4,288 bases of DNA, taken from NCBI RefSeq assembly GCF_003334385.1, contig NZ_QOWN01000087.1; one strand, given 5' to 3'. Positions within the stretch are counted from its first letter, which is position 1. Each line of letters opens with the position of its first letter. Source of the DNA: Escherichia coli. GTDB taxonomy: Bacteria > Pseudomonadota > Gammaproteobacteria > Enterobacterales > Enterobacteriaceae. Shown one piece after another: positions 687 to 2,579 of the stretch. Under the pieces are notes generated by a model. It saw nothing but the letters and a program-made list of their open reading frames with translations. It was not told the origin of the DNA and did no database searches. The position numbers and the translations under genes are program-made.

Positions 687-749
687 CATCCTGCATCAAC
701 GAAAAGGGAGTGCAGTCCCGCTCGTGGATAAAAATTTGTGGAGAAACCA

Positions 750-1565
750 ATGAATCAGTTGCTTGTAATTGATGGCGTTTCTGTGCGCCAGTACTTCGAA
801 TCTAACTACTGTCTTAACGACCTTCAGAAAGCTGCTCTTCTTGCCGCTGGTGAGAATCGCTCCTCCCGTTCGCTGGAAGTTCACGAGTTTATGCGTCGTC
901 CTGAAACGAAGGCTCTTGTGGAATTATTGGAAGAAGAAACTACGGGAGATTCCCGTAGTATTCCTGTCATCACCATTCAGGGGCGCAATGGTGGGACGTA
1001 TGTCTGTAAAGAGCTGGTCTATGCATATGCAATGTGGATCAGCCCGGCATTCAGCTTAAAAGTGATACGTACTTTTGATGCGCTTCATAATTCATCACCA
1101 GAAGAAACCACATCCGACAAAATTAAATCCGGGGTCATTCTGCTTGAATCAGCAGCAAAGACTCTAAATCTGTCAAACTCCTCGAAACTTGGTGCATACC
1201 AGAAATTATCAAAGGTAGCTGGTCTTCCTGAACTTATGCCGATCTATGCCATTGATGCACCTGCTGATGCGCCAGATGGTTCAAGCCGCCCTACGCTGTC
1301 GCTGAGTGCACTGCTGAAGCAGTATGGTATCCGCCTGACGGCTAATCAGGCATATCACCAGATGGCGAAGCTGGGGATCGTTGAACAACGCGAACGATAC
1401 AGCCGTACCGCGATTAACAACATCAAAAAATTCTGGTCGCTGACAGCGAAAGGCTGCATGTTCGGCAAGAACATCACCAGTCCTGCAAATCCGCGCGAGA
1501 CGCAGCCGCATTTCTTCGAATCCCGATTCCCTGAGCTGTTAAAGCTGCTCGATACCGTTCATTGA
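750..1565 (+). CDS. KilA-N domain protein with antirepressor-like C-terminal region (Roi/Ant-like phage DNA-binding protein)
   Basis: ORF to TGA 1563-1565. ATG 750 is preceded by GGAG (740-743) with a 6-nt spacer. The ORF track extends to GTG 738, which overlaps the SD and is less likely. The N-terminal half (NQLLVIDGVSVRQ...GTYVCKELVYAYAMWISPAFSLKVIRTFD) looks like a KilA-N fold. GC is about 50%, like the flanking nin genes. Confidence 0.7.
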   Translation: MNQLLVIDGVSVRQYFESNYCLNDLQKAALLAAGENRSSRSLEVHEFMRRPETKALVELLEEETTGDSRSIPVITIQGRNGGTYVCKELVYAYAMWISPAFSLKVIRTFDALHNSSPEETTSDKIKSGVILLESAAKTLNLSNSSKLGAYQKLSKVAGLPELMPIYAIDAPADAPDGSSRPTLSLSALLKQYGIRLTANQAYHQMAKLGIVEQRERYSRTAINNIKKFWSLTAKGCMFGKNITSPANPRETQPHFFESRFPELLKLLDTVH

Positions 1566-1566
1566 G

Positions 1567-2562
1567 GTGACCGTGAGAGCACTACTGACCCCTGAAATTG
1601 CCCCGCGTATGGGGATCGTATTGTTCAGGCCAGGTTCAGAGCTGATGCCCCTGTTTATGCAGGGGCGTGTCCTGCTGGAGCCTGAGCCGGAACGTTATTC
1701 ATCTTTTGCCAGTGGTGCCGTTCCGGCATCATCACAACCGCTGGCGGATGATCCTGCCGTTCGGGCCGTGTTCCGCCATGAGGCGGTGATCCGTCGTGCT
1801 GGTGGCGTGGAATGCCTTGAGAGCTGGTTACTTCGTGAAAAGGGCTGTCAGTGGCCTCATTCCGACTGGCACAGCGAGAACATGACCACAATGCGGCACG
1901 CGCCAGGCGCAATCCGTCTGTGCTGGCACTGTGACAATCTTCTCCGTGACCAGTTCACGGAACGGCTGGAAGCAATGGCAACGGATAACTGTGCCCGCTG
2001 GGTGTTATCTGTTGTGCGCCGTGATCTTGGTTTTGATGACAGTCACGTTGTGACAATGCCGGAACTGTGCTGGTGGCTGATTCGTAATGACCTGGCGGAT
2101 GCCTTACCGGAAAGTGCAGCCCGTAAGGCACTGAGATTACCGAAGCCTGTTGTGCCGTCTGTCACCCGGGAAAGTGACCTTGTGCCTTCGGTTCCTGCCA
2201 CCAGCATCATCCAGGATAAGGCGAAAAAGGTGCTGGCGCTGAAAGTGGATCCGGAGTCGCCGGAGTCTTTTATGTTACGCCCAAAACGTCGCCGCTGGGT
2301 TAATGAAAAGTACACGCGCTGGGTTAAGACACAGCCGTGTGCATGTTGTGGAAAGCCTGCTGATGATCCCCACCACCTGATAGGCCACGGTCAGGGTGGT
2401 ATGGGGACAAAAGCGCATGACCTTTTTGTGTTGCCGTTGTGCAGAAAACACCATGACAAACTGCATGCGGATACCGTGGCATTTGAAGAGAAGTATGGTT
2501 CCCAACTGGAGCTGATATTTCGTTTTATCGATCGCGCGCTGGCGATTGGTGTGCTGTCCTGA
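1567..2562 (+). CDS. DUF968-like prophage protein with C-terminal Cys/His cluster (putative HNH/zinc-binding nuclease-like domain)
   Basis: Long ORF ending TGA 2560-2562. Start is uncertain: GTG 1567 (1 nt after the upstream stop), GTG 1573 (GAGG 1564-1567 as SD, 5-nt spacer) or ATG 1609. C-terminal motif [23 protein letters not shown]...[11 protein letters not shown] is typical of DUF968 proteins found between nin genes and Q in enterobacterial prophages. Recognition by eye. Confidence 0.7.
1798..1805 (+). other. Chi octamer 5'-GCTGGTGG-3'
   Basis: Exact octamer at 1798-1805 (cgt gct ggt ggc gtg) inside the DUF968-like gene. Confidence 0.6.
2069..2076 (+). other. Chi octamer 5'-GCTGGTGG-3'
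   Basis: Exact octamer at 2069-2076 (ctg tgc tgg tgg ctg) inside the DUF968-like gene. Confidence 0.6.
2198..2205 (-). other. Chi octamer on the minus strand (+ strand reads CCACCAGC)
   Basis: Exact reverse complement of GCTGGTGG at 2198-2205. It is the only one of the six in this orientation. Confidence 0.6.
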
Positions 2563-2579
2563 TTTTGTGGAGAAAGTTG

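Follow-up and report, generated by a model that had tools for sequence, protein, structure and literature searches.

Identical 12-mers ahead of the KilA-N and antiterminator Q genes in a stretch of Escherichia coli DNA: in all likelihood two ordinary ribosome-binding sites

The window, by which we mean the whole 4,288-nt stretch of E. coli DNA that was analysed, carries on its + strand a gene for a KilA-N-domain protein at 750..1565 (phrog_129, 4e-109), a DUF968/HNH gene at 1573..2562 with its TGA stop codon at 2560-2562, and a gene of the antiterminator Q family at 2580..2972 (phrog_79, 3e-47). These assignments follow the PGAP annotation of a homologous RefSeq locus (L001), in which the annotated start codons of KilA-N and of the antiterminator Q family gene correspond to the ATGs at 750 and 2580, and in which the gene order is LexA-like, RusA, KilA-N, DUF968, Q and a 205-aa hypothetical protein. 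The PHROGs families found (phrog_129, phrog_96 and phrog_79) agree with the RefSeq annotation. The KilA-N ATG is kept in all alleles compared and the Q ATG in all homologues, and the first ~50 nt of Q are conserved at the nucleotide level whatever gene lies upstream.

The 12-mer TTTGTGGAGAAA occurs exactly twice in the window, both times on the + strand. Copy 1 (site 1, 735-746) lies in the ribosome-binding site (RBS) region of the KilA-N gene, with GGAG at 740-743, and ends 3 nt before the ATG at 750, the spacer from GGAG to this ATG being 6 nt (AAACCA). Copy 2 (site 2, 2564-2575) lies in the RBS region of Q, with GGAG at 2569-2572, and ends 4 nt before the ATG at 2580, giving a spacer of 7 nt (AAAGTTG). 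Copy 2 begins 1 nt past the TGA of DUF968; 17 nt separate this stop codon from the Q ATG, with the Shine-Dalgarno (SD) sequence between them. The identity of the two copies stops at 12 nt, with no extension to 13 nt on either side, and the sequences flanking them in the window are unrelated. The first-pass annotation of this DNA, which had described identical 12-mers before the KilA-N and Q starts with GGAG at a spacing of 6-7 nt, was thus accurate in every detail.

Two further features lie upstream of KilA-N. A canonical LexA box at 633-652 is found within an insertion of ~145 nt, and a stem-loop, GGGA-GUGCAG-UCCC, is predicted at 706..719 on the + strand from folding and from the alignment of orthologous leaders. 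The stem-loop is situated 15 nt upstream of copy 1, in the conserved part of the KilA-N leader and outside the repeat; among orthologous KilA-N leaders its GUGCAG loop is invariant and its stem covaries. We regard the LexA box and this covarying hairpin as more interesting than the 12-mer repeat itself.

Both copies show what is expected of SD sequences, namely complementarity to 16S rRNA, a distance within about 5-9 nt of a genuine start, and a core that is kept while the flanks vary. Pairing with the 16S 3' end involves the same 4 bp (GGAG:CUCC) at each site, at -6.4 kcal/mol, and the SDs of DUF968 (-11.3 kcal/mol) and of the 205-aa ORF (-11.5 kcal/mol) are stronger. When windows of 60-70 nt around the two sites were folded, 174 of 200 and 195 of 200 shuffled sequences folded at least as well. 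Both sites are weakly structured, no RNA structure common to them was seen in the predicted folds, and neither site matched an Rfam family. In-frame starts inside the 12-mer (GTG at 738 and TTG at 2565) were discarded as candidates, their register being unlike between the sites and the ATGs being those used by PGAP. Coupling of KilA-N to a 36-codon upstream ORF (643-753, ending in ATGA) was likewise rejected, as its frame is broken by a natural variant with an 11-nt deletion; the start of this ORF falls within the LexA box.

Considered simply as a repeat, the 12-mer is nothing unusual; the position common to both copies is the rarer part. When the window was shuffled with its dinucleotides kept, 41% of the shuffles held one or more exact direct repeats of 12 nt, and the window itself has another such repeat, GATAACTGTGCC, at 1984 and 3251, whose placement has no positional logic. 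An empirical null for the positional part was built from ~2 Mb of phage loci by collecting candidate starts that opened an ORF of 60 codons or more and had an SD 4-10 nt ahead of them, which after removal of redundancy left 778 leaders. The start caller recovered 20 of the 39 annotated + strand starts of phage SfIV, and its output is to be read as a sample of RBS-like sites, not as that of a gene finder. A pair of 20-nt leaders was counted when it had a 12-mer or longer in common, neither flank was similar and the genes were unrelated.

With motif-selected leaders removed, 31 of 160,461 leader pairs from diverse viral loci (1.9e-4) matched, and an unbiased lambdoid set gave one matching pair besides the KilA-N/Q pair among 17,391. 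A position-independent model in which two GGAG leaders agree at eight flanking positions yielded 4e-5, similar in order of magnitude to the empirical 1-2e-4 per leader pair. Such a coincidence is a priori rare in this window (~0.3% for 15-21 gene pairs), and ~0.15-0.5 pairs are expected per phage genome of 55-70 genes, so that about one phage genome in 2-6 should show a leader pair of this kind. Further within-phage cases were present in the null set, one locus (L098) having a 12-mer pair and another (L055) an 18-mer pair. The caution attached to the repeat at first pass, that chance could account for it, is upheld.

Comparison of 80 KilA-N homologues divided their leaders into three groups. 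The 12-mer is present in 35 of the 80 loci, four of which have an 11-nt deletion just upstream of it; a second allele, AAGAGGAGAAACGAAGT-ATG, accounts for 42; and the leaders of distant relatives read CAAGTGGAGAAACAC-ATG and TCAGTGGAGAACAAA-ATG. The groups align as orthologues in which the kept part is GTGGAGAA or GGAGAAA only, and therefore GTGGAGAA or GGAGAAAC is old at site 1 and the TTT private to one lineage. Homology breakpoints, determined by BLAST across 284 loci, cluster on this side of the window at 563 and 936-993, away from the 12-mer, and relative to phage 1720a-02 the entire 564-974 stretch is replaced. Site 1 falls within this mosaic block (564-975), away from its edges.

For site 2, 80 Q homologues were collected irrespective of whether they carried the motif. 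Their 5' end is conserved at the nucleotide level (ATGCGTGATATTCA...), and the leader depends on the gene upstream: the 12-mer precedes Q in 14 of the 80 loci, only where DUF968 is upstream, and the leaders behind NinH-like and other genes are unrelated to it, for example GGATGGGGTAAAGATACTG. Approached from DUF968, 138 3' junctions fell into 27 classes, the majority class being TGATTTTGTGGAGAAAGTTG-ATG. Single-base variants of this junction (GAGAAC, GAGAAG, GGTGGAG, TGTTGTGG and GAGAGA) were found together with the form TTTTTTCGGAGAAAGGTG, and the junction table holds point variants of site 2 at most positions outside GGAG. A further junction reads TGATTTTTTCGGAGAAAGGTG, the junction to a different, 250-aa Q family reads TAAGTGGAGAACGAGC-ATG, and those to other genes read TAAGTGGAGAACTCTAA-ATG and TGATAAGTGGAGAACAC-ATG. 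All 80 loci of the 250-aa family follow DUF968, so this family samples a single upstream context. In front of no fewer than four different genes, the 3' flank of DUF968 retains GTGGAGAA, and only this core travels with it.

The BLAST breakpoints of the same 284 loci, with 30 HSP ends at 2556 and 57 HSP starts at 2578, delimit a junction-specific segment of 21 nt (2557..2577, + strand) that leads from the DUF968 block to the Q block and contains copy 2. The conserved 5' block of Q appears in these data as a recombination seam, and the mosaic joints of the nin region map at 563, ~975, 2556, 2578 and ~2627. Among the KilA-N, Q and DUF968 homologues the full 12-mer occurs in two settings only, the DUF968-Q junction and one allele of KilA-N. 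Comparison with related phages, put forward at first pass as one check, showed that in the homologous loci examined the full 12-mer is not conserved beyond close relatives; what is conserved is the SD core (GTGGAGAA or GGAGAAA).

The word is in use elsewhere. Among the matches listed from IMG/VR, unrelated viral contigs have the exact 12-mer and an ATG at the start of at least about 25 unrelated genes; in such contigs the 12-mer often follows directly on a terminator-like hairpin, and the TTT then comes from the T-run of that hairpin. Within the NNGGAGNN words at candidate starts of diverse phage loci, GTGGAGAA ranks seventh (6 of 315), the most frequent being NNGGAGAA words. In SfIV, GTGGAGAA is found at 4 of 55 annotated starts, all of them in early operons, and three early-operon leaders have 10-12 nt of the motif in common (gp40, TGTGGAGAAAC; KilA-N; Q). 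A third exact copy of the 12-mer in SfIV is merely coding sequence (F-V-E-K) in a leftward gene.

Taken together, these comparisons suggest that both copies are very probably ordinary RBSs and that their 12-nt identity is a coincidence without a function of its own. The kind of feature is already known, as these are standard ribosome-binding sites. In each leader GGAG would pair with the CUCC of the 16S rRNA 3' end 6-7 nt before the ATG, and the U-rich 5' side and A-rich spacer would keep the initiation site unstructured, copy 1 presumably initiating translation of KilA-N and copy 2 that of Q. Ribosomes that end at the DUF968 TGA probably re-initiate on Q, and KilA-N is probably expressed from a transcript of its own or by read-through from rusA. 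As to the origin of the identity, the two leaders may have arrived independently in the common GGAGAA class of SD words; the same 8-mer, GTGGAGAA, would long have been carried by both, each in its own lineage, and the remaining four bases (TTT and A) would be a chance agreement in the present lineage. Some observations sit less easily with ordinary RBSs: the coincidence is a priori rare within this window, the presence of the two copies is weakly associated, the attachment of GTGGAGAA to DUF968 is also what crossovers in the SD or immediately 3' of it would produce, and the sharing of the word by three SfIV leaders exceeds a geometric extrapolation of the background. The biological weight of the repeat, that of two standard ribosome-binding sites, is slight. 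Its wider use lies in the calibrated background, by which unrelated phage leaders have a 12-mer or longer in common in ~1-2 of every 10,000 pairs; scan hits of such a kind call for comparative support before a regulatory or recombination signal is read into them.

A different role, that of a boundary sequence or microhomology joint, would have the SD word mark the places where lambdoid early modules recombine, by Red/RecET-type or host functions, the 12-mers being footprints or substrates of the exchange. Module exchange among lambdoid phages has been proposed to run through short conserved boundary sequences (Clark et al. 2001; Susskind & Botstein 1978; as cited in PMC3029335 and PMC2327257), with illegitimate recombination followed by selection as the alternative (PMC3029335, PMC2327257), and RecET can recombine 5-13 bp at ~1e-8 (PMC3029335, PMC2327257). 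Site 2 is placed as such a joint would be, exactly between the breakpoint clusters at 2556 and 2578; GTGGAGAA remains constant with DUF968 while the gene that follows changes; and the same terminator plus 12-mer stands ahead of different genes in two loci (L026 and L083) as compared with a third (L084). Crossover between the two copies should leave recombinant joints, and these were searched for with two 240-nt chimeric queries in 5,426 complete E. coli genomes, where no record covered the joint of either chimera. Moreover, site 1 is interior to its block, the full 12-mer is lost from DUF968 when Q differs and from Q when the upstream gene differs, and an RBS that stays with the upstream block is equally expected from illegitimate recombination and subsequent selection for function. 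The proposal made at first pass, of a recombination joint motif at module boundaries, is accordingly not supported, in view of the missing crossover products in these genomes and the interior position of site 1, and we consider a joint very unlikely. Its positional component survives in part: site 2 does lie at a module boundary, the 2556/2578 junction, whereas site 1 lies inside a block, and the 12-mer is specific to the one junction.

Equally doubtful is a recurrent inter-gene cassette in the early operons of enterobacterial temperate phages, consisting of a GGAGAA-type SD word, often placed after a hairpin with an invariant GUGCAG loop, which might act as a favoured crossover point in module exchange or as a common post-transcriptional signal. 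Words of this type, often with a hairpin, were seen before KilA-N, an Xis-like gene, SfIV gp32-type genes and others. If such a cassette were real, the two 12-mers of the window would be two instances of its SD arm, and the short GC-rich hairpin would be its frequent 5' part.

Shared descent, in which duplication or gene conversion would have made one leader from the other, or both from a common hairpin-plus-SD cassette, has a slimmer chance still. It draws on the site 1 leader with the 11-nt deletion, whose E. coli E2863 version agrees with site 2, left flank included, in 22 of 26 positions (GTGCAGTCCCGAAATTTGTGGAGAAA against GTGCTGTCCTGATTTTGTGGAGAAA), and on an unrelated Xis-like gene that is likewise preceded by the GUGCAG-loop hairpin and then the 12-mer. 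The short variant is, however, derived: the alignment places two more distant orthologues (L238 and L240) with the long form, which makes the 22/26 similarity a by-product of the derived deletion and not a sign of common descent. The unrelated flanks in the window argue in the same direction, and at both sites the 12-mer takes shape gradually within a separate series of orthologues.

The least probable of the readings, a common operator in which a protein or an antisense RNA recognises UUUGUGGAGAAA and so co-regulates the translation of KilA-N and Q, has in its favour that the word is identically placed on two regulatory-type genes of one operon and that a third SfIV early gene has 11 of the 12 bases, but it is opposed by loci with one copy only (25 of the 41 copy-bearing loci), by natural single-base variants at most positions outside GGAG, and by the lack of shared structure and of Rfam families at the sites. 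In 72 loci with both KilA-N and DUF968, the two copies were present together in 16, site 1 alone in 15, site 2 alone in 10 and neither in 31; these loci are not phylogenetically independent, and the association is weak (odds ratio ~3.3). The two copies are clearly not obligately paired. A search for an antisense partner found no complementary stretch of 7 nt or longer in the window or in locus L001, and the SfIV complements of the word are only the sense strands of leftward genes. A shared operator implies strict conservation of the whole word and co-occurrence of its copies, and the loci show neither. The shared translational-control or binding site suggested at first pass is therefore not borne out, given copies that occur independently of each other, a full 12-mer unconserved beyond close relatives, and no complement or common structure.

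Among known systems, translational operators common to several phage mRNAs exist, for example the targets of phage T4 RegA, which overlap initiation regions. The likeness to operators of this type lies in a short word that overlaps the RBSs of two or more genes in a single phage; here, in contrast, the word is not strictly conserved, the copies are independent and no cognate regulator was identified. With the lambdoid boundary sequences the repeat has in common its location between nin-region genes, a site 2 that falls at a mosaic junction, and a GTGGAGAA core that goes with DUF968; it differs in having no joint across the 12-mer, a site 1 away from the block edge, and no 12-mer at alternative junctions. 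Site 2 also resembles the closely spaced genes at which translational coupling or re-initiation occurs, the DUF968 stop being 17 nt before the Q ATG, whereas site 1 has no conserved upstream ORF, and coupling therefore cannot be a property common to both sites. The closest match is with the SD ribosome-binding sites of E. coli and coliphage mRNAs, which have the same GGAG core, 6-7 nt spacing and ATG, the same A/U-rich unstructured surroundings and the same restriction of conservation to the core. No functional difference from these separates the two sites, and their sole oddity is that 12 identical bases stand at two neighbouring genes.

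Comparison of Q loci revealed that the first ~50-150 nt of the Q gene (2578-2741 in the window) are conserved at the nucleotide level across divergent Q alleles, whichever gene lies upstream. The homology begins at 2578 in 57 loci and its ends cluster at 2626-2628, 2677-2688 and 2725-2741. Beyond this block the gene is low in G+C (0.41 for the whole gene). The first-pass annotation had proposed that the 12-mer preceding both KilA-N (735-746) and Q (2564-2575) could be a recombination joint; the seam for Q allele exchange looks to be the conserved 5' block of Q and not the 12-mer.

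Related prophages carry the 12-mer, without mismatch, at a third site, on the minus strand of SfIV at 27264-27275 and also in about 20 IMG/VR loci. This copy is coding sequence (F-V-E-K) in a leftward early gene, on the strand opposite to that of the copies before KilA-N and Q, and has 16 nt, TTTGTGGAGAAACCAA, in common with the KilA-N copy. About 0.4 16-mer repeats are expected per 40-kb genome from a random-sequence estimate, and the match is within that estimate. The window holds one more perfect direct repeat of 12 nt, GATAACTGTGCC, at 1984-1995 (DUF968 gene) and 3251-3262 (the ORF of 205 aa that follows Q); it has no positional logic and serves as an internal control for chance 12-mers.

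Upstream of the KilA-N Shine-Dalgarno sequence (SD) lies a stem-loop, GGGA-GUGCAG-UCCC (706-719). Among orthologous KilA-N leaders, which represent about three deep lineages only, the GUGCAG loop does not vary, and the stem shows covariation, with both sides changed in 3 of 5 pairs. Across these approximately three lineages, 86% of stem cells were paired vs 65% in shuffles, none of the 500 shuffles scoring as high, and pairing in slid controls did not exceed 56%. Hairpins with the same loop were also found before an Xis-like gene, where the hairpin adjoins the exact 12-mer, before SfIV gp32-type genes and before others, and in every case a GGAGAA-type SD comes next; besides the window, the stem-loop was noted in the fetched loci L020 (~4250-4290), L029, L087, L082 and L079. 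By number of distinct contexts, the hexaloop ranked 7th of 2,572 in the fetched loci, which are a biased sample.

Just 5' of the KilA-N copy of the 12-mer, a natural 11-nt deletion, CTCGTGGATAA, was observed in E. coli E2863 (~2990-3032 of that locus), corresponding to 720-730 in the window. The deletion is carried by 4 of the 80 KilA-N loci compared and by many O157-type genomes. Lost with it is GTGGATAAA, which nearly duplicates the SD word, and the 36-codon ORF at 643-753 is put out of frame.

Inside DUF968, the segment GTTGTGCAGAAA (2436-2447; GTGCAG at 2439-2444) was noted as a relative of the 12-mer with two mismatches. It falls within the HNH motif LPLCRKH. The flanks of GTGCAG are often complementary among relatives (CTTT/AAAG, CGTT/AACG, CGCT/AGCG, CACT/AGTG). 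Changes in the 5' flank are synonymous and are matched by amino-acid changes in the 3' flank, and the stem is disrupted in several variants, including the window itself. The complementarity may reflect structure or may be chance.

By sequence match, a canonical LexA/SOS box, TACTGTATTTATGAACAGTG, was identified at 633-652, within a segment spanning about 560-698; a scan for CTGT-N8-ACAG returned 1 match vs 0.06 expected. The box is carried by a piece of ~145 nt that starts with an inverted repeat (561-583), is flanked on both sides by ACGAAAA (553-559 and 699-705) and rewrites the RusA C-terminus. The piece is missing from phage 1720a-02 and from two distant KilA-N leader orthologues (L238 and L240), and among phage records is confined to those of the SfIV and PhiR49_1 types. 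No promoter was called in the region by consensus scan. The position of the predicted box upstream of KilA-N suggests that expression of this gene is SOS-controlled.

At the far end of the window, 4242-4288 matched part of Rfam STnc100 (RF02076) at E = 7e-4; the match scores 30.2 bits, against a gathering score of 47, and runs off the window end. A hairpin followed by a T-run was located at 3743-3767. Directly 3' of Q, the 205-aa ORF (3039-3656) has a strong SD and a low G+C content (0.38). It matches phrog_8498, a family of unknown function, and gave only weak WYL-domain matches in PADLOC. The ORF looks like a cargo gene; in Stx phages, the same position after Q is occupied by stx.
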